Assembly: GCA_964431805.1 (NCBI GenBank)
Contig: CAYSKV010000002.1
Span: 8,025-72,024 of the forward strand
Source: an uncultured Gammaproteobacteria bacterium
GTDB taxonomy: Bacteria > Patescibacteriota > Patescibacteriia > Patescibacteriales > GWC2-42-12
Direction of reading: 5' to 3'
Length of the DNA stretch: 64,000 nucleotides
The position numbers were made by a program, and so were the translations under genes. How positions within the stretch are numbered: the first letter of the stretch is position 1; every line of letters starts with the position of its first letter. This document shows, piece after piece, positions 5,415 through 59,318 of this stretch. Below the pieces are notes generated by a model. The model searched no databases and was not told the DNA's origin. It saw only the letters and a list, made by a program, of their open reading frames with translations.

Positions 5415-7871
5415 CTAGAAGTCTCTTATTTTTGCCTCAAACTCTTTTTCTAAATGTTTTATTAATTTTTTCTGCACTTCATCAACTTCTTCTGAAGTTA
5501 ATGTCTTATCGGCTTGATATATAATATGAAAAGCTAAGCTCTTTTTCTCCGCGCCTAGCTTATCGCCTTGATAAACATCAAATAGTTCAACTTCTTTAAT
5601 TAAATCATTAAAGTTTACAATCTGTTTCTTGATATTATTATACAATATTTTTTTATTTACCACAAATGCTAAATCCCGGCTAACAAGAGGATATTTAGAC
5701 GGCTCTTTAAACTGCTTAATCGGGCCGTTTTTTACTTGATTTAATAGCTCGGGTAAACTTATTTCCGCTATAACCGCGGATTTTTTAATACCAAAAGACT
5801 GTTTAATATTTTTTTCAAGTTCAGCTACGAATCCAATATTAGAGCCACCTACCATAATTTTTGCCGAAGCAAATTTATTATATTTTGATACTTCAAATTC
5901 AAAAGCCGCTTCTAAATTTAAAGATTTTAATAAAAATTCTATCACGCCTTTTAATTTTCTGAATAAATCTTCATTCCCATCGCTAGCTAAAGCTATGGCT
6001 AAACGCTTTTCTTGAAAAGGCAATTTTTCGCGGCCGCTATCATCTTTTTTCATTTCTCCTACTTTATTTAAAAACACGCCGCCAATTTCATAAATAGCTA
6101 TTTCAGCTTCTTGCGCTTGATTTGTTTTTATATTTTCTAAAATACCCGGAATTAAACTCGGCCTTAAAATTACTAAATCTTCGGATAACGGATTAGCTAA
6201 TTTAATTACTGAATCAAATTTTAATTTTTCAGCTTGCTGCCGACTAAGAAAAGAATAATTATAGGTTTCAATAAATCCAGCGCCTAGCGACAAAATATTT
6301 TTAATTTTTCTAACCAATAATTTTTCTTCAATCATTAATGGTGGTATTAAATCTATTTTTGGTAGTTCGGCTTTTAAATTATTATAACCATAAATTCTTA
6401 CTACTTCCTCGGCCAAATCTTCCGGTAAACTTACGTCATGTACCGCGCGCCAACTCGGCACAGTTACTTTAAAATGATTACTGCTTACCTTTATTAAAAA
6501 ACCTAGCTTTTCTAAAATTTGTTTAACTTGTTTATTGGTAAACTCATAACCAATAAATTTATTTAGCCAATTTAAATCCAATTCAATCGGTCGTTGATCC
6601 ACCCTGTTAAATAATTTTGCCTTAGGCAAAATTCCGGCTTCGCCGGATTTAACAGGGTAAACTTTATATTTTTTTTCATCAACTAAATTTGTAGCTACAC
6701 TAGCCCCGGGACAAATTTGCAAAATTAATTCTACAGCGCGAGAAATTCCTAACTCACATAAATTCGGATCCAAACCTTTTTCAAAGCGCATAGAAGATTC
6801 TGTTCTAAGACTAAGTTTTTGCGCCGTTTTTCTTACCGAATTAAAATCAAAATTAGCCGCTTCTATTATTATAGAATTCGTCTGATCATTTATTTCGCTT
6901 GTTAGCCCGCCCATAACTCCGGCTACGGCCACAGGTTTTGTTTGATTGGCAATAACTAACATACCCGATTCTAACTTTCTTTTTACGCCATCAAGCGTTT
7001 CAATAATTTCGCCAGTTTTAGAGGTTCTAACTATAATTTTATCAATAAAATTTTTATCAAAAGCGTGTAAAGGCTGGCCTAATTCAAGCATCACATAATT
7101 AGTTACATCCACTATATTATTAATCGGACGCATGCCAGCGGCCGCTAAACGATCTTGCATCCATTTCGGTGAAGGCGCAATTTTTATGCCTTCAATACCA
7201 ATTCCCATATAGCGCGGACATAAAGAAAAATTTTCAATCTTAACATCAAATTTAAAAAATATTTTTTTAGCTTTTAGAATTCCTGCTTTAGGTTGATAAT
7301 TTTTAAACTTAGTATTTAAAAATGCCGAGATATCGCGCGCCATGCCGTAGTGCGACCATAAATCAGCGCGATGGGTAATGCTTTTATTATCAACTTCAAA
7401 AACAACATCATTCAAATTTAAATAATCGCTAAAATTCTGTCCGACTTTAGCTTTGTCTAAAATTAAAATGCCGTTATGATCAGAGCCTAAGCCCAATTCA
7501 TCTTCAGCGCAAAGCATGCCATTTGATTTTACTCCTCTAATTTCTGCTGGCTTTATTTCTAAGCCATTCGGTAAAATCGCTCCGACTAAAGCTACCGGAA
7601 CTAATTGATTAGGTTTTATATTCGGCGCGCCGCAAACGATTTCTAATTTTTCTTTTCCGATATCCACTAAAGCCAACCTTAATCTATCCGCATTCGGATG
7701 AGGTTTAACTTCTAAAATTTTTCCTACGATTACATTTTTATATTTCTCGGCCTGCGCTTCAACTTTTTCTACTTCTACCGTATGTAAAGTTAAACGTTTG
7801 CCCAATTCTAAAGCCGACACTTCTTTAGGAATATCAACAAAATCACGTAACCAATTTAAGGATAGATACAT
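5415..7871 (-). CDS. pheT: Phenylalanine--tRNA ligase beta subunit
   Basis: 818 aa, starting MYLSLNWLRDFV as is typical of PheT. The length and domain order fit PheT (tRNA-binding OB, B3_4, B5, C-terminal anticodon-binding-like). It lies downstream of pheS in the same orientation. Confidence 0.95.
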   Translation of the reverse strand: MYLSLNWLRDFVDIPKEVSALELGKRLTLHTVEVEKVEAQAEKYKNVIVGKILEVKPHPNADRLRLALVDIGKEKLEIVCGAPNIKPNQLVPVALVGAILPNGLEIKPAEIRGVKSNGMLCAEDELGLGSDHNGILILDKAKVGQNFSDYLNLNDVVFEVDNKSITHRADLWSHYGMARDISAFLNTKFKNYQPKAGILKAKKIFFKFDVKIENFSLCPRYMGIGIEGIKIAPSPKWMQDRLAAAGMRPINNIVDVTNYVMLELGQPLHAFDKNFIDKIIVRTSKTGEIIETLDGVKRKLESGMLVIANQTKPVAVAGVMGGLTSEINDQTNSIIIEAANFDFNSVRKTAQKLSLRTESSMRFEKGLDPNLCELGISRAVELILQICPGASVATNLVDEKKYKVYPVKSGEAGILPKAKLFNRVDQRPIELDLNWLNKFIGYEFTNKQVKQILEKLGFLIKVSSNHFKVTVPSWRAVHDVSLPEDLAEEVVRIYGYNNLKAELPKIDLIPPLMIEEKLLVRKIKNILSLGAGFIETYNYSFLSRQQAEKLKFDSVIKLANPLSEDLVILRPSLIPGILENIKTNQAQEAEIAIYEIGGVFLNKVGEMKKDDSGREKLPFQEKRLAIALASDGNEDLFRKLKGVIEFLLKSLNLEAAFEFEVSKYNKFASAKIMVGGSNIGFVAELEKNIKQSFGIKKSAVIAEISLPELLNQVKNGPIKQFKEPSKYPLVSRDLAFVVNKKILYNNIKKQIVNFNDLIKEVELFDVYQGDKLGAEKKSLAFHIIYQADKTLTSEEVDEVQKKLIKHLEKEFEAKIRDF
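6601..6658. repeat. Y-shaped palindromic mini-element, copy 1 (inside the pheT ORF)
   Basis: The outer 12-bp stem is ACCCTGTTAAAT (6601-6612) / ATTTAACAGGGT (6647-6658). The inner hairpins are AATTTTGCC-tta-GGCAAAATT (6613-6633) and CCGGC-ttc-GCCGG (6634-6646). Confidence 0.85.
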
Positions 7872-7922: not shown

Positions 7923-8267
7923 TTAATTTTTTAAACTAGAACTTATTTTATTAAAAATAAGCGTTAATTCATGTGCTTCTTTCCATAAAAGTCTTAACTT
8001 TTCAACTTCTTCTTTATTGGTTTGGGCTATAAGTTCAAGCCAATATTTAGTTTCCTGAATTTCTTTTCTACAAATATATATTTTATTTTTAAAATCTTTT
8101 CTTGAAGCAGCTCCATTAGCTTCACAATAATTTGCACCTACGCTAGTTGCCGACCTGATTAATTGTTTGACTATACTTTCGTTTATTATATTCTTATTTA
8201 ATCTTATTAATAATTCGATTATTTCTTTACTAAACTTTTTTGTCCTCTCCTCTAAATCATACTGCAT
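7923..8267 (-). CDS. Four-helix-bundle protein ('23S rRNA intervening-sequence protein' / Avd-like family)
   Basis: 114 aa. The stretch SATSVGANYCEANGAASRKDFKNKIYICRKEIQETKYWLELI matches my recollection of the PF05635/TIGR02436 signature. The gene sits between pheS and pheT. Confidence 0.8.
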   Translation of the reverse strand: MQYDLEERTKKFSKEIIELLIRLNKNIINESIVKQLIRSATSVGANYCEANGAASRKDFKNKIYICRKEIQETKYWLELIAQTNKEEVEKLRLLWKEAHELTLIFNKISSSLKN

Positions 8268-8328: not shown

Positions 8329-9384
8329 CTAGAATTGTTTTAAAAATTTTAAATCACCGCTATGAAATAACCTAATATCATTAATGCCATATTTTAACAT
8401 AGCTAATCTATCTAAACCGTAACCAAAAGCAAAACCTTGATATTTTTTCGGATCAATACCGCCAGCGCGTAAAACGTTAGGATGTACCATGCCGCAACCA
8501 ACAATCTCTAACCAACCCGTTCCTTTACATAAACGACAACCCTTGCCACCGCATAAAAAACAGGAATATTCGCCATTAGATCCAGGTTCAACAAAAGGAT
8601 AAAATTTCGGACGCATTCTAAATTCAGTATCAGGGCCGAATAATTTTTTACCTAAAACTTCTAAAATAGCCTTTAAATTACTAAAATTTATATTTTTATC
8701 TATCATTAAACCTTCTAACTGATAAAAAGTATGTTCGTGGCGAACGTCGGTCGCTTCATTTCTAAAACAACGGCCGGGCACAATGCATTTTATTGGCGCG
8801 CCATATTTTTGCATGGCCCTTATCTGCATAGGCGAAGTTTGCGTGCGCATTAACATATCATACTCGCCTTTAGCATTTTTCTTGTCCTCCGTAGCTTTAG
8901 CGTAGGAGGGATGATCAATATAGAAAGTATCTTGCATGTCGCGAGCTGGATGAAAGGGAGGGATATTTAAAGCCGTAAAATTATAATAATCGCTCTCTAA
9001 TTCCGGTCCATCAAGCACCATAAAACCAAGCGAAGAAAATAAATCTTCTATTTCGTTTTGTAAAATCGTTATAGGATGCAAATGTCCTTGCTTAATTTCT
9101 ACGCCAGGTAAAGTCGCATCAACATAATCAGTCTTAGTATTTTCCCCTAAACTAATTTTAACTTCTTCAAATCTATTTATTAATTCAATTTTTATTTCAT
9201 TAGCTAATCTACCTAAAGTCTTTTTTTCTTCCGCGCTTAAATCAGCCACGCTTCTTAAAATTTTTGTCAGCTCGCCTTTTCTACCAAGATATTTTATTTC
9301 TAAATCACGCAAAATCTCTAGCTTTTTAACTTCAGCTAGTTGATTTAAAATTTCTTGCTTTAGTTTTTGTAATTTAGATTCCAT
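8329..9384 (-). CDS. pheS: Phenylalanine--tRNA ligase alpha subunit
   Basis: ORF track 8329..9417. I prefer the ATG at 9384 (MESKLQKLKQEIL) because the first 11 codons of the longer ORF overlap the upstream gene. Class II motifs are present: FRNEATDVRHEHTFYQLEG and GFAFGYGLDRLAMLKYGI. Confidence 0.93.
   Translation of the reverse strand: MESKLQKLKQEILNQLAEVKKLEILRDLEIKYLGRKGELTKILRSVADLSAEEKKTLGRLANEIKIELINRFEEVKISLGENTKTDYVDATLPGVEIKQGHLHPITILQNEIEDLFSSLGFMVLDGPELESDYYNFTALNIPPFHPARDMQDTFYIDHPSYAKATEDKKNAKGEYDMLMRTQTSPMQIRAMQKYGAPIKCIVPGRCFRNEATDVRHEHTFYQLEGLMIDKNINFSNLKAILEVLGKKLFGPDTEFRMRPKFYPFVEPGSNGEYSCFLCGGKGCRLCKGTGWLEIVGCGMVHPNVLRAGGIDPKKYQGFAFGYGLDRLAMLKYGINDIRLFHSGDLKFLKQF
8886..8909. 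repeat. Short palindromic element (CCTCC..GGAGG, 'AKATEDK' family) inside the pheS ORF
   Basis: The element is cctccgtagctttagcgtaggagg. An 18-nt core, tcctccgtagctttagcg (8885-8902), is identical to 49266-49283 in valS. It is translated as HPSYAKATEDKK. Confidence 0.8.
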
Positions 9385-9817
9385 TTTGATTAATATTATT
9401 TTCTTCTTGAATATCATTAGTGATTTTAGTCTTACTATAACTTAAAAGAAAAAATTCTAAGGCGGATAAGCCAATTATTAAAATAGCTAAATTTAACCAA
9501 CTAAATAAATTTCGTGAAAGCAAAAATAAAGCTGCTATAATAAAACCGGCGAAAAAAAATGACTGGCGAAAAGCGACTTTAACCGTGTTAATAACTAATT
9601 CATGACGAAAAATTATAAATCTAATAATAAAACCGATAATGGCGGTAGCGCCGCTGATTAATAAAAATAAAGATAAATAAAATAGAAAAAAACCAACGCT
9701 ATTAGTAGTTTCCGGGTCAACCGTAAAAACAATATAACCAAACATAACGGCGCATAGCGCCGTCATGAATGACATAACTAATAAATATAAACGTAAAGAC
9801 ATGGGATTAATTTTCAA
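9374..9817 (-). CDS. Small integral membrane protein, unknown function
   Basis: 147 aa with about four hydrophobic helices and no family I recognise. Its stop overlaps the preferred pheS start by 11 nt. Confidence 0.6.
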   Translation of the reverse strand: MKINPMSLRLYLLVMSFMTALCAVMFGYIVFTVDPETTNSVGFFLFYLSLFLLISGATAIIGFIIRFIIFRHELVINTVKVAFRQSFFFAGFIIAALFLLSRNLFSWLNLAILIIGLSALEFFLLSYSKTKITNDIQEENNINQNGI

Positions 9818-9824
9818 TTCTCAA

Positions 9825-9856
9825 TTTTCCCTGCTTAAGGCAGGACAAGCAATTTT
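9825..9856. repeat. CCTGC-hairpin element, intergenic copy
   Basis: The sequence is ttttCCCTGCTtaagGCAGGacaagcaatttt. The same flanks (ATTTTCCCTGCT ... AGCAGGACAAG-AATTTT) recur inside argS at about 44057-44096. Confidence 0.7.
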
Positions 9857-9959
9857 AAAAAAATGCCATTGAAAATTAGATAATTAATAATTCATTGATA
9901 ATTGATAATTTGTAAATTGGTAATTAATAATACTTTAACATTTTATGGCTAAATTTTCA

Positions 9960-10011
9960 ACCCTGTTAAATAAATTTTTAAGAAAAATTTCGCGTAGCGA
10001 TTTAACAGGGT
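9960..10011. repeat. Y-shaped palindromic mini-element, copy 2 (immediately after the helicase stop; probable terminator)
   Basis: The outer stem ACCCTGTTAAAT (9960-9971) / ATTTAACAGGGT (10000-10011) is identical to copy 1. The inner hairpins differ but still pair: AAATTTTT-aag-AAAAATTT (9972-9990) and CGC-gta-GCG (9991-9999). Confidence 0.85.
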
Positions 10012-12974
10012 CAACCTCTAAACTCACAAATTTCCTTAAAATCGCACCAAGCGCATAAGACTCCGGGGTTAGCTTTAAATTTACCCTGATTTATTTCTTT
10101 AATAGTATCAACAATCTTAACTTTTATTTTTTCTAAATCTTTGGCCGAGCCAATAAATTCAACCTCGCTATTATCATCAAGATAATAAAAAGCCAAGGTT
10201 TTAACTTCTTGTTTAAATAATTCCTGAACGGCTAATTGATAAATTAATAACTGCTCTTTATCTTTAAACTCAAGCTTATCTTTAGGTTTACCGGTTTTAT
10301 AATCAACTAGCTTTAAACCTTCTCCGACTTTATCAATCCGGTCAATCGCGCCGCGCACTACATACGAATCTTTACCGTCGGTAATTTTAAGATTAAAGCC
10401 TTTTTCTAGAAATAATGCCGATGGCCAGTTATCTTTATATTTTTCATAAAAACCTTTTAAAATTTCCTGACCTTGTTTTTTTCTTTCCTGCTTTTTCTTT
10501 TTAGATTCAAACCAATCATCAACCCAACTTTCTTCATAAAATTTTAAAATTTCTTCAAAAGTAATATTATCTTTTTTCGCCTTAACTTTATTATCGAATA
10601 AACCGGCCTGGCCTAAGCCCTTTTTCTCGTTAAGTAAAATAAATATTTTTTGCAAAGTTGAATGCAGGGTTTTACCGAAAGAAAATTGCTCTTTACCCAT
10701 AGTAGGAATTTTTAAAATATGGGCAAAACGATATTGATAGGGGCAGGCCGAGTAAGCCGCTAATTGCGAATAAGAAAAGTGAGTAGGAATGGCTATGTCT
10801 TTATCATCTTTAACATTCTTAACTTTTTTAGAAATTTTTAATTTATCATTTACTAATGATTTATTTTCTTCTAACGGTAATTTCTCGTTTCCAATCATAC
10901 CTAACTCTATTAAAAATCTTGATGGTTTCTTTTTAATTTTTCCGCCATAATCCGCCGCCCAAGAAAAATATAAACCAGTTTTAGCTCGCGTCATTGCCAC
11001 ATAAAATAAACGTCGTTCTTCTTCTAAATGCACGTCGCCAACGGTCAAAATTTCTTTAATTAAAGCGTCGGGTAAACTAATTTGCTCATTTCTCGCTATG
11101 GTCGGAAAGCGCTTATCCACTAAATTAGCTATAAAAACATATTTAAATTCTAAGCCTTTAGCGCCATGAACAGTTAAAATTCTAACGGCCTCAGGGCCAA
11201 CTTCTAAATCAGATTCTAAAGCGCCTTCTTCACCGGCTTCTATTTCTAAATTTAATTCAGCTAAAAAGGCTCTAACGCTTTTATCATCTGAAGAACTTTC
11301 AAAATCTTTAACTCGTTTTAAAAATTGATTTAATAAATTTATAGTTTCAAGATTTTTTTGCTCGCCTAAACGACTTAAATATTTTAAATAACCGCTGTCA
11401 TTCATAAAAGCTAAAAAAACTTCGCTGATTGGTTTTTCTCGAGCTAAAATTGAATGTTTAGAAATTAAAGTTAAAACAGCTTTTACTTTTTTTTCTAAAT
11501 CAGCCGAAAATTTTAAAACACTGCCGCTATTTATAACTTCAAAAAGCGACCAGGCCTTTTTATTAGCTAAATGATTAAAATTTACTAATTCTTCGGAAGT
11601 AAAATTAAAAATCGGTAAACTTAATATGCGCCATAAAGCTAAACTTTCATGATAATTATCTAATAATTTTAAATAAGCTACTACGTCCATAATTATCGGT
11701 TTAGCGTAAAGACCGCGCGAAGAACCGAAAATAAAAGGCAGCCCGCGGCGATCAAATTCAGCCATAAAATCATTAGCCGAATCGTTAGCGCGCACTAAAA
11801 CCGCAAAGTCATTTAGACTAACGTTTTTATTTTTATTCTTTAGTTCAATTATTTTATTTGCCACTAATTTTACTTCTCCATCTAAATCAGCGCCTTGTAA
11901 AACTTCAATTACGCCGGCGCCAGAATTTTCAGCGATTAACTTTTTACTTAAATTTTTATCTTTTTTAAATTGCCATTCTAATCGGTTCGGATTGTTTTGC
12001 TTAATAAATTCATAAGACAAATCTAAAATATTTTGTTGGCTGCGATAATTTTTAGTTAAAACTATTTTTTCAGCTTTAGGATAATCTTTGGAAAATTGCA
12101 AAATATTAGACATGGAAGCGCCGCGAAAACGATAAATTGATTGATCGTCATCGCCTACGACCGTTAGATTATTAGTCGGCTCAGCTAAAAGTTTTACTAA
12201 TTCATATTGCGCCCAATTAGTATCCTGAAATTCGTCTACTAAAATATATTTAAACTGCTTTCTATATTTTTCTAAAATCGCTGGGCGTTCGCGAAATAAT
12301 TTTAAGGTGTAGTTTATTAAGTCGCCAAAATCTATGGCGCTATTATCTAATAATAATTGCTGATAAACATGATAAGCATTAGCGATTTCATTAACGCGCG
12401 CAACTTCCTGCTCTACTATTGTCTTGTCAGAAACGCCGGATAACATACCGTCTAAATTTTGCTTTAACCCATCGGCATAATTTAAATAATCGGCCGGCGA
12501 AATATCTTCATCTTTAGCGCGAGAAAAATGTTTTAAGAGAGCGCTAATAAATTTAGTCGGATTGCCTAAGGGGCGATAATAATCTAATTCAAACTTATCT
12601 AAATTCTTTTTTATTAACGCCCATTGCTCAAACTCATTTAACAATTTAAAATCGCCTGGTAGTCCTAAGCTTAAACCATGCTCTTTTAAAATCCGCTCGG
12701 CAAAACTATGAAAAGTTGAAACCCATAAATCAAAATAACCAATCGGCAATAGCGACCCAACCCGATCTTCCATTTCCGCGGCCGCTTTTTCCGTAAAAGT
12801 TAAAGCTAAAACTTCGTCAGATTTAGCTAGGCCTTGTTCAATTAAATAAGCGATGCGCTGGGTAATAACCGTAGTTTTACCGGTACCTGCTCCAGCCACA
12901 ATTAAAAGCGGTCCGTTTTTATGTAAAACTGCTTTTAGTTGTTCTTTATTAAGATTTTCTAATAGATTATTCAT
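10011..12974 (-). CDS. UvrD/PcrA-type superfamily 1 helicase fused to a C-terminal PD-(D/E)XK (AddB/Cas4-like, Cys-cluster) nuclease
   Basis: 987 aa. The N-terminus carries AGAGTGKT (Walker A), DEFQDT and other UvrD-like blocks. The C-terminus carries SACPYQY ... DRIDK ... DYKTGK ... CAWCDFKEIC, consistent with a RecB-family nuclease with 4-Cys ligands. Confidence 0.85.
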   Translation of the reverse strand: MNNLLENLNKEQLKAVLHKNGPLLIVAGAGTGKTTVITQRIAYLIEQGLAKSDEVLALTFTEKAAAEMEDRVGSLLPIGYFDLWVSTFHSFAERILKEHGLSLGLPGDFKLLNEFEQWALIKKNLDKFELDYYRPLGNPTKFISALLKHFSRAKDEDISPADYLNYADGLKQNLDGMLSGVSDKTIVEQEVARVNEIANAYHVYQQLLLDNSAIDFGDLINYTLKLFRERPAILEKYRKQFKYILVDEFQDTNWAQYELVKLLAEPTNNLTVVGDDDQSIYRFRGASMSNILQFSKDYPKAEKIVLTKNYRSQQNILDLSYEFIKQNNPNRLEWQFKKDKNLSKKLIAENSGAGVIEVLQGADLDGEVKLVANKIIELKNKNKNVSLNDFAVLVRANDSANDFMAEFDRRGLPFIFGSSRGLYAKPIIMDVVAYLKLLDNYHESLALWRILSLPIFNFTSEELVNFNHLANKKAWSLFEVINSGSVLKFSADLEKKVKAVLTLISKHSILAREKPISEVFLAFMNDSGYLKYLSRLGEQKNLETINLLNQFLKRVKDFESSSDDKSVRAFLAELNLEIEAGEEGALESDLEVGPEAVRILTVHGAKGLEFKYVFIANLVDKRFPTIARNEQISLPDALIKEILTVGDVHLEEERRLFYVAMTRAKTGLYFSWAADYGGKIKKKPSRFLIELGMIGNEKLPLEENKSLVNDKLKISKKVKNVKDDKDIAIPTHFSYSQLAAYSACPYQYRFAHILKIPTMGKEQFSFGKTLHSTLQKIFILLNEKKGLGQAGLFDNKVKAKKDNITFEEILKFYEESWVDDWFESKKKKQERKKQGQEILKGFYEKYKDNWPSALFLEKGFNLKITDGKDSYVVRGAIDRIDKVGEGLKLVDYKTGKPKDKLEFKDKEQLLIYQLAVQELFKQEVKTLAFYYLDDNSEVEFIGSAKDLEKIKVKIVDTIKEINQGKFKANPGVLCAWCDFKEICEFRG

Positions 12975-12986
12975 GAATTAAGTTTA

Positions 12987-15900
12987 TTAACGATAAAAAA
13001 TAACATCAGAACCACTTGCAAAATCGCTTGTTAAATATCTAATAATCACAACACCTGAGCCACCATCACCGCCATATCCAGGAGTTGCGCCAGCGCATCC
13101 ACCACCACCACCACCAGTATTTAGCGTACCATCTTCTCCATTTCCTGAACCATTACTATTTCCATAACCATCGCCGCCGCCATGCGTGCCAAGGCCGTTA
13201 GTTTTAGTTCCTGCCGTCCATAAAACTCCGCCGCCGCCGCCAGCGTAACCAACTTCAACGCCACTAATAGAATTATTTAACCCCGCGCCTCCATCAGGGG
13301 CATGGTCTTTATCAGGTGGCGTTTGCCCAACAGCGCCCGCTCCGCCGCCAGCACCAGATGGATAAGGCGATTGATGAAATCCTCCATTACCTGACCCATT
13401 ATTACCTTGAGAACCATATACGGCTAAACCACCAAAAGTGTCAGCGCCACCATGAGTTGAACCGCCACCGCCAGAAGCTCCATCTTTACCATTATTTCCA
13501 TTACCACCACCACCGCCGCCGCCATAAGCAGTAATATTATCAAATACGCTATTCGTACCGTTAGCTCCCCCTGCGGAATTATTTCCAGCCACTCCTAAAC
13601 CTCCATCGCCGACTGTTATATTATATGTTTGAGGAGAAACAGCATGCTCAGATTCATAAACATAGCCACCGCCACCGCCACCGCCAGCAGCTCCACCGCC
13701 ACCGCCACCAACAACTAAAACTTCAACATTGCCAGCTTTAGGGAATGTAATTGATCCATTGGAAGTAAAAGTATGAATTGTATAATCACCGTCAATTGTA
13801 ATATCTCCTCCAGCTAAACTATCTGAAGTTTTTGTTTTAAAAATAACTTGACTAGAAATATTAAAATCACTAGTTAAATATTTAATAATAACAATACCTG
13901 AACCGCCGTTGCCACCATTAGAATTAGAGACTCCTGAGCTAGTTGATCCCCCTCCTCCACCACCGCCAGTATTAGCAATTCCGTCGCTACCACTTTGGCC
14001 TACAAGGCCTCCATCGCCACCTCCACCAATCCCGCCTATGCCGCCATTGCTAGATTTACCACCTCCGCCTCCACCACCAGCGTAATAAACAGAAGAACCA
14101 CTTATGGAGTAAGCTAAACCATCGCCACCGTTACCACCCACAGAACTAGTTCTAGTTTGCCCAACAGAATTAGCACCGCCACCTCCGGAACCAGCGCGGT
14201 ATGTTGTAGTATTAGTTAGTGCGTCACCGCCATTATTACCTTGCCCAGATGTTCCTTGTGAGGCTGCAGTGGATTGGCTATATGAATTTGCTGCGCCACC
14301 GCCAGAACCTCCGTCTGCGCCCTTGTTTACGCCAGTTGGATCATCATTATCTGAACCGCCACCGCCACCTCCGATAGCTATTAATGAGTCAAAAATACTA
14401 TTTTCACCATTACTGCCTTTGTTGGAAATTAACGTGGCACCATTACCACCATTTCCAACAGTAACAGTCTTAACTCCAGTAGTTACTGCATAGGAGGCAT
14501 TATAAATTAAACCGCCTGCTCCTCCTCCACCACCGCCATCTCCATTACCACCTAATTCAGCGTGTCCTCCTCCACCACCGCCAGCAACAACTAATACTTC
14601 AACATTTCCACTTTTAGGAAATGTAATAGTTCCGTCAGAAGTAAAAGTATGAATTGTATAGTCACCGTCATAAGTTACATTACCTCCAGTAAGAGCAGAG
14701 GGGTTCGTGCGAAAAATTATTCTTCTACTTAAAGACGTATCATCAAAATCATTATTTAAATATCTAATAATAACTATACCTGAACCGCCTTTACCTCCAG
14801 CTTGAAAACCGGCTCCGCCGCCACCTCCACCCGAACCAGTTCCGTCTGTTCCAGCCGTTCCAGCCGTATCTCTCCAACCGCCATGTCCTCCAATTCCGCT
14901 TCCTCCATCACCGCCACCGCCGCCGTCATAACCTCCTGCTCCACCGCCAGCCGCATAATAAGTCGGCGTTCCGCTTATGCTATTACTTGTTCCATCGCCG
15001 CCATTACCTCCTTGATTGCCAACTCCATTAGCGCCAATAGATCCTGAACCGCCGCCGCCGCCACCACCTAAATTAGAGGCAACTGCTCCTGTCCCTCCAT
15101 TATTTCCTTGAGAAGGCACAGTTGCTGGAGTATTGCCGGAACCGCCTACCCCGCTAAAACATTGTCCGCCGCCGCCTGAACCGCCGTTGTTTCCAGGAGT
15201 GGCACCACTACCACTTGGACCGCCACCAGCTCCGCCGCCAGCCGCAGTAATAGTAGAAAAAATACTAGCTTCACCATTACTCGCCGAGCCTGAACTACCA
15301 GGCCCGCCAGATCCGCCATCGCCAACTGTTATATTATATTCTTGAGCAGAAACGGGAAAAGATGAAACATATCTATAGCCGCCTGCTCCGCCACCACCAG
15401 CTGCATTTCCACCGCCACCACCGCCGCCACCAACCACTAAAACATCTACATTGCCAGCTTTATTAAATGTTATTGTCCCATCAGAAATAAAAGTATGAAC
15501 GGTATAATTACCATAATGACTTATTGTTCCGCCATCAGGATGAGTAGAATTATAAGCATAAGCTATTTGATCGCCAAACTCAAAACGCAAAACATGATTA
15601 CCGGCTTTTTTAGTAAAATTAATAACTTTGCCGTTGCCGGCGCAAAACCAATTTGGATAAAAAATAACATCACCAGCTAAAATTTGTGGATCTTTTTTTT
15701 CTCCGTCGCAAAATAATGACACAAACTCATCATCATCTATTGTCGCCTGATCATTAGGAATTATTTTTAAATCAGCCGTGCCTTTAGTAGAAAATTCAAC
15801 CTCCCAATTTTCTCCTTGTTGAGGATGCGAATGAATATTTAAAACAACTACTTCTATCGTCGGATCTAAAACCACCGGATATTTGGCTTTATCCAACCAT

Positions 15901-16511
15901 TCTTGATTTGGTTTGATAGTTAAAAATCCATCATTAGTTAAATTAGTTTCAACTTCTCCGGTTGAACTTTTTTTATTATCAGCATCAATTAAAAATGGCG
16001 CTGGAATATCAAAAACCCGATAAAGCTGTTCTCCTTTTTTACCTTTAACATAAAAAATGAAATTACCTTCTTTATCTTTTTCAAAATCATAAAAAGTTAA
16101 ATCTATCTGATAAGCAAATTCTTTAGGATGACCGGGCTGTTTTAAAATTATATCTTCTTTTATCTTATCGCTAAATTTTGTTTGCACTATATCAGTATTA
16201 TTAAAAGCATCAATATATTTAATAACATTATCGCTTAATACTTGAGCCTTAGCCTCTAAGGCGCCTAACGGCACGATAGAAAATTCATGATTAAATAATT
16301 TTATTTTTAATTGTCCATTATAAAAGGCGGGCTGTGATATTTCAAGAACAGATTTATTATTAGTAAGAGAATCTTCTTCTAAATTAATAAAAACACTATA
16401 AATTGAAGCGCCTATAGCAAAAACAAAAACGGCCATAACAAAAATAGAAAGAATATTTATTTTCTGTTCTTTAGTAATTTTAAAAATTGATTTTAAAAAC
16501 TTTTTTACCAT
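12987..16511 (-). CDS. Membrane-anchored glycine-rich surface protein with three ~270-aa Gly-rich modules
   Basis: 1174 aa. It has an N-terminal TM (ILSIFVMAVFVFAIGASIY) and a ~330-aa non-repetitive domain. Three modules follow, each starting G[ND]YT[VI]HTF[IT]S.G.ITF.K.GNV.VLVV-GGGGGG and ending GGSG[IV]VII[RK]YL..DF. Confidence 0.85.
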   Translation of the reverse strand: MVKKFLKSIFKITKEQKINILSIFVMAVFVFAIGASIYSVFINLEEDSLTNNKSVLEISQPAFYNGQLKIKLFNHEFSIVPLGALEAKAQVLSDNVIKYIDAFNNTDIVQTKFSDKIKEDIILKQPGHPKEFAYQIDLTFYDFEKDKEGNFIFYVKGKKGEQLYRVFDIPAPFLIDADNKKSSTGEVETNLTNDGFLTIKPNQEWLDKAKYPVVLDPTIEVVVLNIHSHPQQGENWEVEFSTKGTADLKIIPNDQATIDDDEFVSLFCDGEKKDPQILAGDVIFYPNWFCAGNGKVINFTKKAGNHVLRFEFGDQIAYAYNSTHPDGGTISHYGNYTVHTFISDGTITFNKAGNVDVLVVGGGGGGGGNAAGGGGAGGYRYVSSFPVSAQEYNITVGDGGSGGPGSSGSASNGEASIFSTITAAGGGAGGGPSGSGATPGNNGGSGGGGQCFSGVGGSGNTPATVPSQGNNGGTGAVASNLGGGGGGGSGSIGANGVGNQGGNGGDGTSNSISGTPTYYAAGGGAGGYDGGGGGDGGSGIGGHGGWRDTAGTAGTDGTGSGGGGGGAGFQAGGKGGSGIVIIRYLNNDFDDTSLSRRIIFRTNPSALTGGNVTYDGDYTIHTFTSDGTITFPKSGNVEVLVVAGGGGGGHAELGGNGDGGGGGGAGGLIYNASYAVTTGVKTVTVGNGGNGATLISNKGSNGENSIFDSLIAIGGGGGGSDNDDPTGVNKGADGGSGGGAANSYSQSTAASQGTSGQGNNGGDALTNTTTYRAGSGGGGANSVGQTRTSSVGGNGGDGLAYSISGSSVYYAGGGGGGGKSSNGGIGGIGGGGDGGLVGQSGSDGIANTGGGGGGGSTSSGVSNSNGGNGGSGIVIIKYLTSDFNISSQVIFKTKTSDSLAGGDITIDGDYTIHTFTSNGSITFPKAGNVEVLVVGGGGGGAAGGGGGGGYVYESEHAVSPQTYNITVGDGGLGVAGNNSAGGANGTNSVFDNITAYGGGGGGGNGNNGKDGASGGGGSTHGGADTFGGLAVYGSQGNNGSGNGGFHQSPYPSGAGGGAGAVGQTPPDKDHAPDGGAGLNNSISGVEVGYAGGGGGVLWTAGTKTNGLGTHGGGDGYGNSNGSGNGEDGTLNTGGGGGGCAGATPGYGGDGGSGVVIIRYLTSDFASGSDVIFYR
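13021..15513 (-). repeat. Three tandem diverged Gly-rich coding modules (about 15513-14743, 14665-13861, 13795-13021)
   Basis: Boundaries were estimated from the recurring DNA for G[ND]YT.HTF (e.g. aaagtatgaa..gtata at ~15491, ~14642, ~13771) and for VII[RK]YL (~14760, ~13880, ~13040). Confidence 0.7.
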
Positions 16512-16513
16512 TT

Positions 16514-16897
16514 GTCATTGCGAGCGTAAGCGAAGCAATCTCACGAACTATAAATCTTCGCTTAAATCTCGCCATTTTAGATTAACTTTTTTTATTAATT
16601 CTATTTTCTTTTTTCTTGAACCGCTTTTTATTTGTTTTTCTCTAGCAATCGCATCATTAATATTATTAAACATCTCATAATAAACTAATTTATCTGCGTT
16701 ATATTTAGCAGTAAAACTTTGTTTATTTTCTTTTGTTTTATGATAATAATTTCTATTTAATAAATTATTACTTACCCCTGTATATAAAACTGAATTCCAT
16801 CTATTGGTGTTTATATAAACATAATATTGTTTTTCCTCCTTCATATTATCAATTATTATTCGTGGGATTGCTTCGTCGTTTCACTCCTCGCAATGAC
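16514..16897. mobile_element. GIY-YIG nuclease mini-element bounded by ~31-36-bp terminal inverted repeats
   Basis: The left end is gtcattgcgagcgtaagcgaagcaatctcac (16514-16544). The right end, 16862-16897, is the reverse complement of gtcattgcgaggagtgaaacgacgaagcaatcccac. Each end contains an ATTGC..GCAAT hairpin, and the only cargo is the 98-aa GIY-YIG ORF. Confidence 0.6.
16548..16844 (-). CDS. GIY-YIG nuclease family protein (COG2827-like)
   Basis: 98 aa. The sequence YYVYINTNRWNSVLYTGVSNNLLNRNYYH ... KLVYYEMFNNINDAIAREKQIKSGSRKKKIELI fits the small stand-alone GIY-YIG (URI) domain. Confidence 0.8.
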   Translation of the reverse strand: MKEEKQYYVYINTNRWNSVLYTGVSNNLLNRNYYHKTKENKQSFTAKYNADKLVYYEMFNNINDAIAREKQIKSGSRKKKIELIKKVNLKWRDLSEDL

Positions 16898-16910
16898 ATA
16901 AAACCAAAAT

Positions 16911-18191
16911 TTATAACTTTAACATTTTTTCAAACTCTTTTTTATCTTGATACGGCCCAATCACGGCTAAATTTAACTTCTGATTAACAAAAATTTCTTT
17001 AGCGACGCGGCGAATATCTTCAGCGCTAACTTTTTTTATGGTGTTGTAGTATTTTTCCGGCGTTAAAATTTTATCTTTTTTATTTTGCTCTTTAAATAAA
17101 ATCGCCTGCCGAGCGTACCAGTTGGCTAAGCTATCGGATGATTCAAGGTTTAAAGTCGTGCGGCCGATTAAACATTGCTTAACACGATTTAATTCTTCGG
17201 CTCCGACCAATTTTTCGGTTATTTTTTTATATTCGGCTAAAATTATTTTTATGGCTTGATTAATTTTATCTATAGGTACCCCGGCTTGAGTAGTTAAGTA
17301 ACCAGAGTCGGTGTATGGTTCATTATGCGTTCTAACATAATAAGCTAAACCTCGGCGTTCTCTTAACTCGGTAAAAAGCCTGGAGCTCATAGTACCACCT
17401 AAAATTATGGAAATAATTTTGGCCGCAATTTCATCCTTATCGCCGAAAGGATAAGTTCTAACGCCGAGCGATAAATGAGCCTGATCGGTTTTTTTATAAA
17501 ACAAATTAAGATTAGGTTTTGTTTGTTTATCGTTTGTTTTTATTTTTTCCTGGTAATCCTGTTTGGAAAATTTCTTAAAATATTTATTAATTAATTTTAA
17601 AGCTGATGGTTTAAAACCGCCGGATAAACTAATAATTATTTTGTCCGAACTATATTGAGAATTTAAATAATTTAAAATTTGCTGACGATTTAATTGACTA
17701 ATAGTTTCTTTAGTGCCAATCGTATCTCGGCCGGCCGGCGTATCGCCGTAAAGACATTCTTCAAATAAATCTTCTATATAAATAAGCGGATTATCAAGAT
17801 ACATATTAAGCTCTTCTATTATAACTCCCTTTTCGCGATTAATTTCTTCTTCTTCAAATTTTGAATTTAATAACATATCGCTTAAAACATCTAAAGCTAA
17901 TTCGAGTTGGCTGGCTTCGACTTTTATAAAATACCCGGTATATTCTTTGCCGGTAAAAGCATTAAATTCTCCGCCGACACGATCTAACTCCGAAGAAATT
18001 GCTAGCGTAGTCGGACGCTTTAAAGTACCTTTAAAAAACATATGCTCTAGAAAATGAGAAACTCCGCTAATTTGCTTATCTTCGAACCTGGAACCAGTCG
18101 CTATCATAACTAAAACTGTTATAGTTTTAGTACCGGAAATTGGCGCGGTTATCACTTCTAGTTGATTAGATAATTTTGTTATTTTATACAT
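16911..18191 (-). CDS. M16 (pitrilysin) family zinc peptidase
   Basis: 426 aa with the HFLEHMFFKG inverted zinc motif (HxxEH) near the N-terminus and the two-domain length typical of M16B. Confidence 0.85.
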   Translation of the reverse strand: MYKITKLSNQLEVITAPISGTKTITVLVMIATGSRFEDKQISGVSHFLEHMFFKGTLKRPTTLAISSELDRVGGEFNAFTGKEYTGYFIKVEASQLELALDVLSDMLLNSKFEEEEINREKGVIIEELNMYLDNPLIYIEDLFEECLYGDTPAGRDTIGTKETISQLNRQQILNYLNSQYSSDKIIISLSGGFKPSALKLINKYFKKFSKQDYQEKIKTNDKQTKPNLNLFYKKTDQAHLSLGVRTYPFGDKDEIAAKIISIILGGTMSSRLFTELRERRGLAYYVRTHNEPYTDSGYLTTQAGVPIDKINQAIKIILAEYKKITEKLVGAEELNRVKQCLIGRTTLNLESSDSLANWYARQAILFKEQNKKDKILTPEKYYNTIKKVSAEDIRRVAKEIFVNQKLNLAVIGPYQDKKEFEKMLKL

Positions 18192-58040: not shown

Positions 58041-59318
58041 TTAAACAAATTGCGCTTTACTTCTTAATTTTCTATGATACCCAATCGCAAAACGATGCGC
58101 TTCGTCACGTACTCGTTTAATTAAATGTAAAGCTGGCGAAGCTAAAGGTAAAACTAATGGTTTATTTTCTCCGGGAAAAAATAATTTATCAGCCGCTAAA
58201 GCCGATCTTAAACCCTCTCCCTTAGAAATAGCAATAAGAGAAATTGTTAACCCTCTTTTTTTTATAATTTGACTAGCGACATTTAATTGCGCCTTACCGC
58301 CGTCAACAATAATTAAATCTGGCAACGGCCAATCATTAGCAAATCTTCTTTCTAAAATTTCTTTTAACATACCAACGTCATTAGCTTGACCTTGGCCGAT
58401 TTTAATTTTAAATTTTCTATACTGATTTTTATCAGCTTCGCCATCGCTAAATACTACCATTGACCCAACGGCGTTTTTACCAAAAATATTAGCGATATCA
58501 TAACCTTCTATTCTTTTCGGCGCTTTTAGCAATCCAATTATTTTTGCCAATTCCACTACATCATTAGCATATTTTTCTCCCACGCTTAGAACTCTTGAAC
58601 TATCTAGCACTTGCTTCATATTTTTTAATTCAAATTTCAGCTTATTCAACTCCTCTTCTCCATTATTTTTTTTCTCTAATTTTTTAATTCTTATTTCTAA
58701 ATTTTTAATTACATTTTTCTTTTTACCTTCTAAAAATAATATGAGCGGTTTAATCACTAACTTTAGATACTCTGCTCGATTAATTTTACCGGCGCAAATT
58801 CCTAAACAACGACCGATTTGATAATAAAAGCAGGGCCGCTTTTGCGTTTTTTTCATATTGCAATAAGGAAAAATTTTTCTAAGCGCGCGAACGGTTTCTC
58901 TGGCCGCTCGGGAACTTACGAACGGTCCAAAATATCTTCCAGTTTTATCAACGGTTCTGGTTAAAAATACGCCGGGGATTTCATCGCTAAGCGATATTTT
59001 AATATAAATAAATCTTTTATCATCTCGTAAAGTTACATTGTATTGTGGCTGGAATTTTTTTACTAAATTAGATTCTAGAAGCAAGGCTTCAATTTCGCTA
59101 TCAGTTTCTACCCATTTAATTTTAACTATTTGCTTTAACATAGAATATTTAGCCGGAGTATGATTAGCGCTTTTTTGCCAATAAGACAATACACGATTTT
59201 TTAAATTTGCCGCTTTGCCAATATAAATAATTTCGCCTTTGCTATTGTAAAACTGATAGCTGCCAGGCGAAGTTGGAATATTTAATTTTTTTACATTTTC
59301 TATAGTCATAAATTTCAA
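58041..59318 (-). CDS. uvrC: Excinuclease ABC subunit C (short form, apparently lacking the C-terminal (HhH)2 domain)
   Basis: 425 aa with an N-terminal GIY-YIG (GSYQFYNSKGEIIYIGKAANLKNRVLSYW), a Cys motif (CFYYQIGRCLGICAG) and a C-terminal endonuclease domain (IEGYDIANI...IIVDGGKAQL...RDEAHRFAIGYHRKLR). The ORF ends 8 aa later. Confidence 0.9.
   Translation of the reverse strand: MKFMTIENVKKLNIPTSPGSYQFYNSKGEIIYIGKAANLKNRVLSYWQKSANHTPAKYSMLKQIVKIKWVETDSEIEALLLESNLVKKFQPQYNVTLRDDKRFIYIKISLSDEIPGVFLTRTVDKTGRYFGPFVSSRAARETVRALRKIFPYCNMKKTQKRPCFYYQIGRCLGICAGKINRAEYLKLVIKPLILFLEGKKKNVIKNLEIRIKKLEKKNNGEEELNKLKFELKNMKQVLDSSRVLSVGEKYANDVVELAKIIGLLKAPKRIEGYDIANIFGKNAVGSMVVFSDGEADKNQYRKFKIKIGQGQANDVGMLKEILERRFANDWPLPDLIIVDGGKAQLNVASQIIKKRGLTISLIAISKGEGLRSALAADKLFFPGENKPLVLPLASPALHLIKRVRDEAHRFAIGYHRKLRSKAQFV

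Follow-up and report, generated by a model that had tools for sequence, protein, structure and literature searches.

Two nested palindromes, in pheT and at a helicase stop codon

The window analysed here, a stretch of 64,000 nucleotides of contig CAYSKV010000002.1, contains on its minus strand a pheT gene and a gene for a UvrD/PcrA-type helicase, each associated with one copy of a short nested palindrome, which we call the Y element. A preliminary description of this DNA had reported a perfect 12-bp outer stem enclosing two hairpins, translated in frame within the pheT open reading frame (ORF) just before the start of a B5-like domain, and a second copy with an identical outer stem and different inner hairpins that still pair. 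Both copies were found exactly as described (Table 1). Read from arm to arm, copy 1 is ACCCTGTTAAAT / AATTTTGCC-tta-GGCAAAATT / CCGGC-ttc-GCCGG / ATTTAACAGGGT and copy 2 is ACCCTGTTAAAT / AAATTTTT-aag-AAAAATTT / CGC-gta-GCG / ATTTAACAGGGT. The peptide encoded by copy 1 sits in the linker between the B3_4 (residues 218-387) and B5 (residues 429-496) domains of PheT.

Table 1. Features of the window related to the Y element
Feature	Position	Strand	Comment
pheT ORF, 818 aa, host of copy 1	5415..7871	-	all five PheT domains intact
60 nt (20 codons) gained over the empty site	6600..6659	-	PheT residues 405-424, translated as YPVKSGEAGILPKAKLFNRV
Y element copy 1, 58-nt core	6601..6658		nested palindrome; covariance-model match of 85.8 bits
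Left outer arm of copy 1, ACCCTGTTAAAT	6601..6612		same as the left arm 5' of full-length GIY-YIG genes
Long inner hairpin of copy 1, AATTTTGCC-tta-GGCAAAATT	6613..6633		9 bp, triloop
Short inner hairpin of copy 1, CCGGC-ttc-GCCGG	6634..6646		5 bp, triloop
Right outer arm of copy 1, ATTTAACAGGGT	6647..6658		Y-L-T-G codons of the nuclease in full-length elements
Y element copy 2, 52-nt core	9960..10011		arms as in copy 1; hairpins AAATTTTT-aag-AAAAATTT and CGC-gta-GCG
UvrD/PcrA-type helicase ORF	10011..12974	-	TGA stop (10011-10013) overlaps the final base of copy 2

Folding of either strand of copies 1 and 2 gave a three-way junction with zero unpaired junction bases, with energies of -30.4 kcal/mol (z = -7.0) for copy 1 and -16.3 kcal/mol (z = -4.7) for copy 2. 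The preliminary description had asked for the inner pairing to be compared with shuffled controls, and none of 200 shuffled sequences folded as well as the two copies. The 12-mer occurs four times in the window, compared with 0.58 occurrences expected, and four or more occurrences were obtained in 0 of 100 shuffles.

The same sites were then compared with those of close relatives. Orthologues with 87% identity to this PheT lack exactly 20 residues, the sequence across the insert point being ...YKL-DQG..., in agreement with the earlier suggestion of a lineage-specific insertion. The pheT DNA of the close relative L121 has an empty site, AAA TAT AAA TTA GAT CAA, where the window, 60 nt longer at this point, has AAA TAT AAA GTT T[58 nt]G GAT CAA. 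The 3' end of the helicase gene is found on the same L121 contig as TTTAGAGGTTGAAAATTTAG, again with an empty site; here the window has 54 extra nt within GGTTGA, corresponding to the 52-nt core plus 2 nt, although this gain may equally be read as a duplication of up to 6 nt. A diverged copy occupies the helicase site in L123, the closest relative. Since the same sites are empty in L121, copies 1 and 2 are insertions. The pheT copy may have survived for three reasons: its core plus 2 nt amounts to 60 nt and keeps the reading frame, the frame in use is free of stop codons, and the insert is placed in an interdomain linker.

Other short inserts were seen in the same gene. L123 carries a different palindromic insert near the pheT site, and the PheT orthologues P0001, P0004, P0006, P0008 and P0010, as well as L123 pheT (8810-11260), contain additional small in-frame inserts at several positions, among them TPLIPLLKGGGRG, SPLPPFYKGG, APLQRGGAGG and others that are longer, some of them adjoining the site used in the window. 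The two that were checked in DNA are nested palindromes of another, C/G-run family (CCCCCTT...AAGGGGG), of which no insert was found in the window.

The dispersed family of short elements

A scan for exact arms 20-50 nt apart, with one genome per species, identified at least 120 genome contigs in Patescibacteria and several other phyla, with inner hairpins that differ and yet pair. According to the record titles, the hosts belong to many classes of Patescibacteria and to Omnitrophota, WOR-3, Desulfobacterota, Bacteroidota and Cloacimonadota. One match (L039) lies on a Desulfatiglandales contig of 4.1 Mb, which is too large to be a mis-binned fragment of Patescibacteria. The family statistics given below rest on 129 copies among the matches listed. 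A perfect junction, with two inner hairpins and zero unpaired junction bases, is formed by 88 of them. Core lengths range from 45 to 83 nt with a mode of 58, the long hairpin usually has 8-9 bp and the short, GC-rich hairpin has 4-6 bp, and the loops are chiefly triloops of the TTT/TTC/TCT or AAA/GAA/AGA kinds. The long hairpin starts with AATT(T/C) in 38 of 91 oriented copies, a start that is also present in the leader of the full-length elements described below. It had been proposed that the architecture is kept while the sequence is not; this holds in that the interiors vary and still pair, but the interiors are partly conserved in their AATT(T/C) start and loop types. The flanks prolong the inverted repeat as TTY...RAA, with positions +/-1 mostly T/G or C/A.

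A covariance model built from nine copies accepted only copies 1 and 2 in the window and detected about 14 further copies with variant arms at other loci. A weak match of this model at 59224-59284 was taken as chance, as it lies inside an ORF and shares only the common part AATTTCGCC...GGCGAA. Several contigs per metagenome-assembled genome (MAG) bear copies, and identical interiors, in either orientation, were found at separate loci of a single MAG (L012, L016 and L027). Relative to the flanks, the interior of the short elements is flipped in a ratio of 21 to 10. Eighteen of the 129 copies (14%) are inside long ORFs, nearly always in the phase xAC CCT GTT AAA, and the remainder are mostly between co-directional genes. 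At approximately 15 ORF ends, which lie within the element or coincide with its first base, it is the copy that provides the upstream gene with its stop codon. When the ORFs of the 120 genome loci and of the viral locus were clustered all against all, no protein family proved to be enriched beside the copies, the best one recurring at 8 of 120 loci. The motif was found on only one viral contig, and carriage by phages was rejected for that reason. Literature searches with the 11-mer and 12-mer strings returned only primers and unrelated matches, among them a match to Picrophilus pPO1, which proved to be a primer for 5' rapid amplification of cDNA ends and its single target site in the plasmid sequence. 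Searches for MITEs (miniature inverted-repeat transposable elements) or palindromic elements in Patescibacteria and for three-way-junction repeats found nothing relevant.

Three variations on the short element were noticed. In WOR-3 and Stahlbacteria, copies with exact 12-bp arms enclose about 40 nt that form no structure, and their conserved flanks are longer and contain ATCTG(C/T)G (L065 4732-4795, 6127-6191 and 6375-6437; L031, L073, L019, L044 and L076). Some of these loci have repeated flanks, and a CRISPR-like array was considered for them and rejected, as reading of L065 and a tandem-repeat search showed dispersed single copies; a gene associated with these copies was looked for and not identified. 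At L028 4881-5004 (124 nt) and L032 5172-5319 (148 nt) the arms are unchanged but the element is longer, one of its inner hairpins having grown by 70-100 nt; no remnant of the nuclease ORF was seen in either. Finally, in 12 copies from Patescibacteria (L004, L024, L038, L074, L080, L081, L084, L110, L055, L091 and L109, the last with two copies) the Y element is the middle module of a nested-palindrome mosaic of about 250 nt, which fills whole intergenic regions between unrelated genes with constant polarity in the order stop-TAA-AGGGCTTTGTC-[hairpin]-ACAAAACCTTT / Y / GCTGAATTTTAT-[hairpin]-ATAAAATTCGC-ATG. Within this context the Y interiors differ and can be flipped (L004 versus L074). The mosaic resembles the bacterial interspersed mosaic elements (BIMEs) of enterobacteria.

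The arms and the 84-aa GIY-YIG nuclease gene

A GIY-YIG ORF in L123 is bracketed by TTT-ACCCCGTGAAAT and ATTTCACGGGGT-GAA, which are compensatory variants of the arms. Its last codons, TAT TTC ACG GGG TGA, are the right arm itself; a short element is nested within this ORF and interrupts it. Its reconstruction gave an 84-aa protein with thousands of homologues, the majority exactly 84 aa long, and with the C-terminus RLKSY[L/F]TG; TAT TTA ACA GGG TRA corresponds to the canonical arm ATTTAACAGGGT followed by RA. The DNA around four distinct members has the arrangement TTY - arm - AATTTTAAATTTT... - ATG ... GGG TAA/TGA, and L125-L129 show the corresponding order of TTY, arm, leader and ATG...GGG TRA. 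When metagenomes were scanned for exact arms 250-275 nt apart, at least 120 contigs were obtained, and in 83 of the 120 contigs listed the arms enclose an intact GIY-YIG ORF of 84-92 aa. The C-terminus is KSYLTG in 82 of these 83 ORFs, which stop with TAA (46), TGA (35) or TAG (2). A small GIY-YIG nuclease gene thus has the arms of the Y element at its two ends, with its four final codons, Y-L-T-G, forming the right arm. The 12-bp arms are near-invariant across phyla because the right arm codes for the conserved C-terminus and the left arm must stay complementary to it.

The full-length units and the short elements share further features. The leader starts with AATTTT in 40 full-length units, as does the long hairpin of the Y element. 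The arm variants ACCCCG/CGGGGT and GTGAAAT/ATTTCAC are found both around genes ending in Y-F-T-G and in short elements, and 21 variant short elements have 12 compensatory arm positions among them. The flanks of the full-length units are of two kinds, TTC...AAA (31) and TTT...GAA (27), each the reverse complement of the other, and Watson-Crick combinations are few. The interior is therefore present in either orientation with respect to an asymmetric frame, and the TTY/RAA flanks give a stop codon both ways. The domains detected in the 84-aa protein were PF01541 (GIY-YIG, E ~1e-15) and a weaker, overlapping PF10544 (T5orf172), with no separate extra domain, and the nearest solved structures are those of the UPF0213 proteins 1zg2 and 1ywl (E ~1e-6).

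Both kinds of unit are polymorphic in position. A single contig, L129, contains two full-length copies with about 95% identity over 302 aligned nt, together with a solo right end; a 37-nt mini-element interrupts one of the two copies. In L124, the two genes that border the GIY-YIG gene of L123 and L125 have no such gene between them. The preliminary description had regarded the Y element as a mobile structured mini-element, a view borne out by the presence/absence differences from L121 at both copies and by the spread of varied but pairing interiors over at least 120 contigs. In all four pairs of filled and empty sites the net gain equals the core plus 2 nt (58 to 60, 52 to 54, 46 to 48 and 37 to 39 nt), and the empty sites resemble TTGA/TTTGAA. 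From this rule, only cores with a length of 1 mod 3 are expected inside genes. Such a length was found in 17 of 18 genic copies versus 45 of 111 non-genic copies (Fisher p = 1.4e-5), indicating that genic copies are filtered for frame. A single rule of integration was sought and rejected: a 2-nt duplication, a blunt insertion at TT/RA and a 4-nt replacement each fit some of the four pairs and none fits all cleanly.

The window itself contains a GIY-YIG gene of another type. A 98-aa single-domain gene of a different subfamily (16548-16844, minus strand; ~35-38% identity to the 84-aa family) lies in the region 16512-16911 between inverted ends that contain hairpins, with TGTCATTGCGAGGAGTGAAACGACGAAGCAATCC on its upstream side and GATTGCTTCGCTTACGCTCGCAATGACA on its downstream side. 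Both resemble the NTS frame of Neisseria (GTCATT-stem-loop-stem-AATC) and fail the strict SRM pattern. Homologues of the gene are located at different intergenic sites in L123 and L124.

Three further features of the region were noted. Between pheS and pheT, a gene at 7923-8267 (minus strand) encodes a 114-aa four-helix bundle (PF05635, 23S rRNA intervening-sequence protein). Among the relatives, L121 lacks a gene in this spacer, L123 has a GIY-YIG gene there and L124 a 23S_rRNA_IVP gene, and these differences suggest that small selfish genes use the spacer as a landing site. Downstream of copy 2, about 116 AT-rich nt with AATTATCAATTA-type repeats (9818-9935) are absent from L121 and related to a stretch in L123 (caattacgaattacgaatta...); they may be another small insert or a promoter region. 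An ORF of 1174 aa at 12987-16511 (minus strand) consists mostly of glycine-rich runs (GGGGGG..., GNGGxGG) with three TIHTFTSDGTITFPKAGNVEVLVVGGGGGG-like modules.

A proposed nuclease-driven element, its rivals and its relatives

We consider it probable that the Y element is the non-autonomous palindromic partner of a small mobile unit built around a nuclease similar to Ssn. Genes and short elements have the arms in common, the arm variants co-vary, and the insertions are polymorphic between close relatives. By analogy with the Ssn nucleases, we infer that the nuclease recognises and mobilises the element on folded single-stranded DNA (ssDNA). The full-length form of the unit, of about 290 bp, is composed of TTY, the left arm ACCCTGTTAAAT, an 18-21-nt leader (AATTTT...), the 84-aa GIY-YIG ORF, the right arm ATTTAACAGGGT and RAA, the right arm providing the last four codons of the nuclease and the flanking RAA completing the stop codon. 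The short Y elements would be MITE- or REPIN-like forms in which the arms were kept and the gene was replaced by two small hairpins. In ssDNA the arms would pair and the two inner hairpins would form, giving a compact three-way junction. A nuclease encoded by a full-length copy at another place in the genome could then recognise the invariant stem and nick near its base, and the nick might lead to copying or to reinsertion at TTGA/TTTGAA-like sites. A further step would be to regard the ~290-bp unit as an autonomous DNA transposon, with the single-domain GIY-YIG single-strand nuclease as its sole transposase and the Y elements as its hairpin-shaped non-autonomous derivatives; this is possible, but we put it forward only tentatively.

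Several observations weigh against the nuclease-partner explanation. No full-length gene of the 84-aa subfamily is present in the window, and in hosts other than Patescibacteria, such as the Desulfatiglandales contig, no matching nuclease gene was found in the 8 kb examined. The Y interiors share only their first ~6 nt with the full-length leader, which makes simple internal deletion a conjectural origin. The consensus flanks TTY...RAA are inverted and not direct repeats, a possible duplication of 2-6 nt was seen at copy 2 only, and in two nested cases a simple insertion fits less well than an exchange of 4 target nt. In addition, the polar intergenic mosaic hints at extra roles, possibly at the RNA level.

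The closest described system is that of the Ssn nucleases with their flanking hairpin repeats (Chenal et al., Nat Commun 2025, PMC11893778). Ssn are single-domain GIY-YIG proteins of ~94 aa that cut ssDNA site-specifically beside a cognate hairpin repeat (NTS, or Ssn-related motif, SRM) and are inactive on dsDNA and RNA; the repeat flanks their own gene and is dispersed in hundreds of copies, and the authors point to the IS-like repeat-gene-repeat layout and to the parallel with REP/RAYT (PMC11893778). The system described here is similar in having a small single-domain GIY-YIG protein (84-92 aa, mostly 84, compared with 94 aa in N. meningitidis), a gene bracketed by its cognate repeat (L123, L125-L129 and the contigs of the metagenome scan) and dispersed orphan copies of the repeat. 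It differs in that the gene is flanked by half-sites that pair with each other and not by two complete hairpins, in that the right half-site consists of the gene's four final codons and the first stop-codon base, and in that the orphan copies are branched three-way junctions, whereas the Ssn repeats are simple hairpins. Moreover, the share of genic, in-frame copies given above compares with 2% reported for NTS, and the hosts, Patescibacteria and other uncultivated phyla, are not discussed in that work (PMC11893778). The SRM consensus HGTCWYN(0-2)YYVSBRHN(0-5)WNVSBRGN(0-2)RNCYNB matched 0 of the 129 Y elements (with 10-nt flanks) and had no match in the window. The preliminary description knew of no such family in genomes of this kind; this stands for the motif and the lineages, which do not appear in PMC11893778, and has to be qualified by the related Ssn class described in 2025. 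In an mSystems paper, GIY-YIG genes are among those predicted to have been transferred from Patescibacteria to other bacteria, which fits the spread of the arms across phyla.

The rival that deserves most attention holds that the repeats are targets of a domesticated GIY-YIG nuclease, which restricts or modulates incoming or replicating ssDNA carrying the motif, as has been proposed for NTS/SsnA in Neisseria, and not its cargo; the Y elements would then spread and persist by other routes such as recombination, transformation or template switching, with the nuclease not acting as a transposase. The precedent of Neisseria, where Ssn/NTS modulates transformation and no transposition was shown (PMC11893778), speaks for it, as do the failure of any target-site duplication rule to fit all copies and the presence of some copies with different interiors at orthologous sites of diverged genomes, which suggests long residence. 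Set against these are the recent presence/absence differences between relatives at 87-89% PheT identity, the identical interiors at different loci of one MAG, the short elements nested within nuclease genes, and the full-length units, which are multi-copy and polymorphic in position; each of these would be expected of a mobile unit. We therefore regard this alternative as unlikely.

A structured RNA, whether a processing site, a riboregulator or an mRNA stabiliser, with the three-way junction selected at the RNA level, would account for the very stable fold with its compensatory changes, for the fixed polarity of the 12 mosaic copies relative to the flanking genes and for the C(UUCG)G-type loops of some copies. 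We find it very improbable, as there is no orientation bias with respect to the transcribed strand (long hairpin first 33, short hairpin first 30; T/G 17, C/A 25), both strands fold equally well, and the arm sequence is accounted for by the coding sequence of the nuclease. A search of Rfam 15 at gathering and permissive thresholds returned no family, only tRNAs and chance microRNA/snoRNA matches. Because of the lack of orientation bias, the mostly perfect Watson-Crick inner stems on both strands, the minimal 3-nt loops and the absence of an Rfam match, the evidence points to a DNA-level palindrome and not to a strand-specific RNA. Even less credit can be given to an ordinary MITE moved by the DDE transposase of an insertion sequence (IS) that shares its terminal inverted repeats: the element does have terminal inverted repeats of 12-15 bp and is small, dispersed and mostly intergenic, but no protein family recurs near its copies, 83 of the 120 arm pairs listed at 250-275 nt apart enclose an intact GIY-YIG ORF and not a transposase, and target-site duplication is inconsistent. 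A chance palindrome or a native conserved PheT segment draws on nothing beyond the AT-rich composition of the window and is refuted by the shuffle controls for 12-mer count and folding, by the orthologues without the segment, by the empty DNA site and by the copies found in hundreds elsewhere; its probability is negligible. Integron attC sites, whose hairpin has at its open end R'' (RYYYAAC) on the 5' side and R' (GTTRRRY) on the 3' side, were also considered and rejected, as the Y element has GTTAAAT on the 5' side and ATTTAAC on the 3' side, both beside the junction and not at the open end. The resemblance to Xer/dif sites (TGTTAAAT of the XerD arm) was dismissed together with attC, since the half-sites are wrongly ordered and oriented and much too long a spacer separates them.

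Other palindromic repeats share parts of this organisation. Rickettsia palindromic elements (RPEs) are, reportedly since the work of Ogata et al. in 2000, short palindromic repeats that insert in frame into protein genes, including essential ones, at tolerant positions. The preliminary description had likened the Y element to them, and the likeness in behaviour is borne out by pheT and by the genic copies of the family, 17 of which have a frame-preserving length: in both cases a palindromic repeat adds to a protein a peptide segment that is absent from orthologues. RPEs differ in their hosts, probably in their sequence, in their unit size (roughly 100-150 nt versus 45-83 nt here) and in not being Y-shaped nested palindromes. 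The parallel may go deeper than behaviour, because Rickettsia is listed among the genomes with more than 300 SRM repeats (PMC11893778). With the REP/REPIN-RAYT systems the Y element has in common non-autonomous palindromic doublets, a nuclease gene flanked by the same repeats and a proposed action on ssDNA hairpins, whereas the arm-flanked gene is GIY-YIG and not HUH Y1 (RAYT), and the element is distributed across phyla, not within one species, and also inside genes. The inverted terminal repeats of parvoviruses (adeno-associated virus) have the arrangement A-B-B'-C-C'-A', an outer stem enclosing two small hairpins. The formal architecture of the Y element is the same and its interior also occurs in both orientations, in a flip/flop-like manner, but the two are unrelated in sequence, host and replication mode, and the analogy is one of shape only.

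The pairing of Y element and nuclease offers a concrete enzyme and substrate for the old question of what moves short palindromic repeats, including those translated within essential genes. As the arms are near-invariant, partly since one of them codes for the nuclease, the substrate is easy to define: window positions 6598-6661 or any of the at least 120 copies are candidate substrates, and 84-aa proteins such as P0221 are candidate enzymes. If the nuclease cuts the folded single strand, Ssn enzymes would be extended to Patescibacteria and to a branched DNA substrate, which would be of interest for ssDNA tools. If the autonomous-transposon explanation is true, the GIY-YIG nuclease would represent a new class of prokaryotic transposase, and the ~290-bp units would be among the smallest self-mobilising units known, with an integration that adds the core plus 2 nt without conventional duplication and allows flip/flop of the interior. 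For the hosts, the findings show that pheT and other core genes of small-genome Patescibacteria can take up in-frame insertions repeatedly and be tolerated, and annotators and phylogeneticists are advised to mask such inserted segments.

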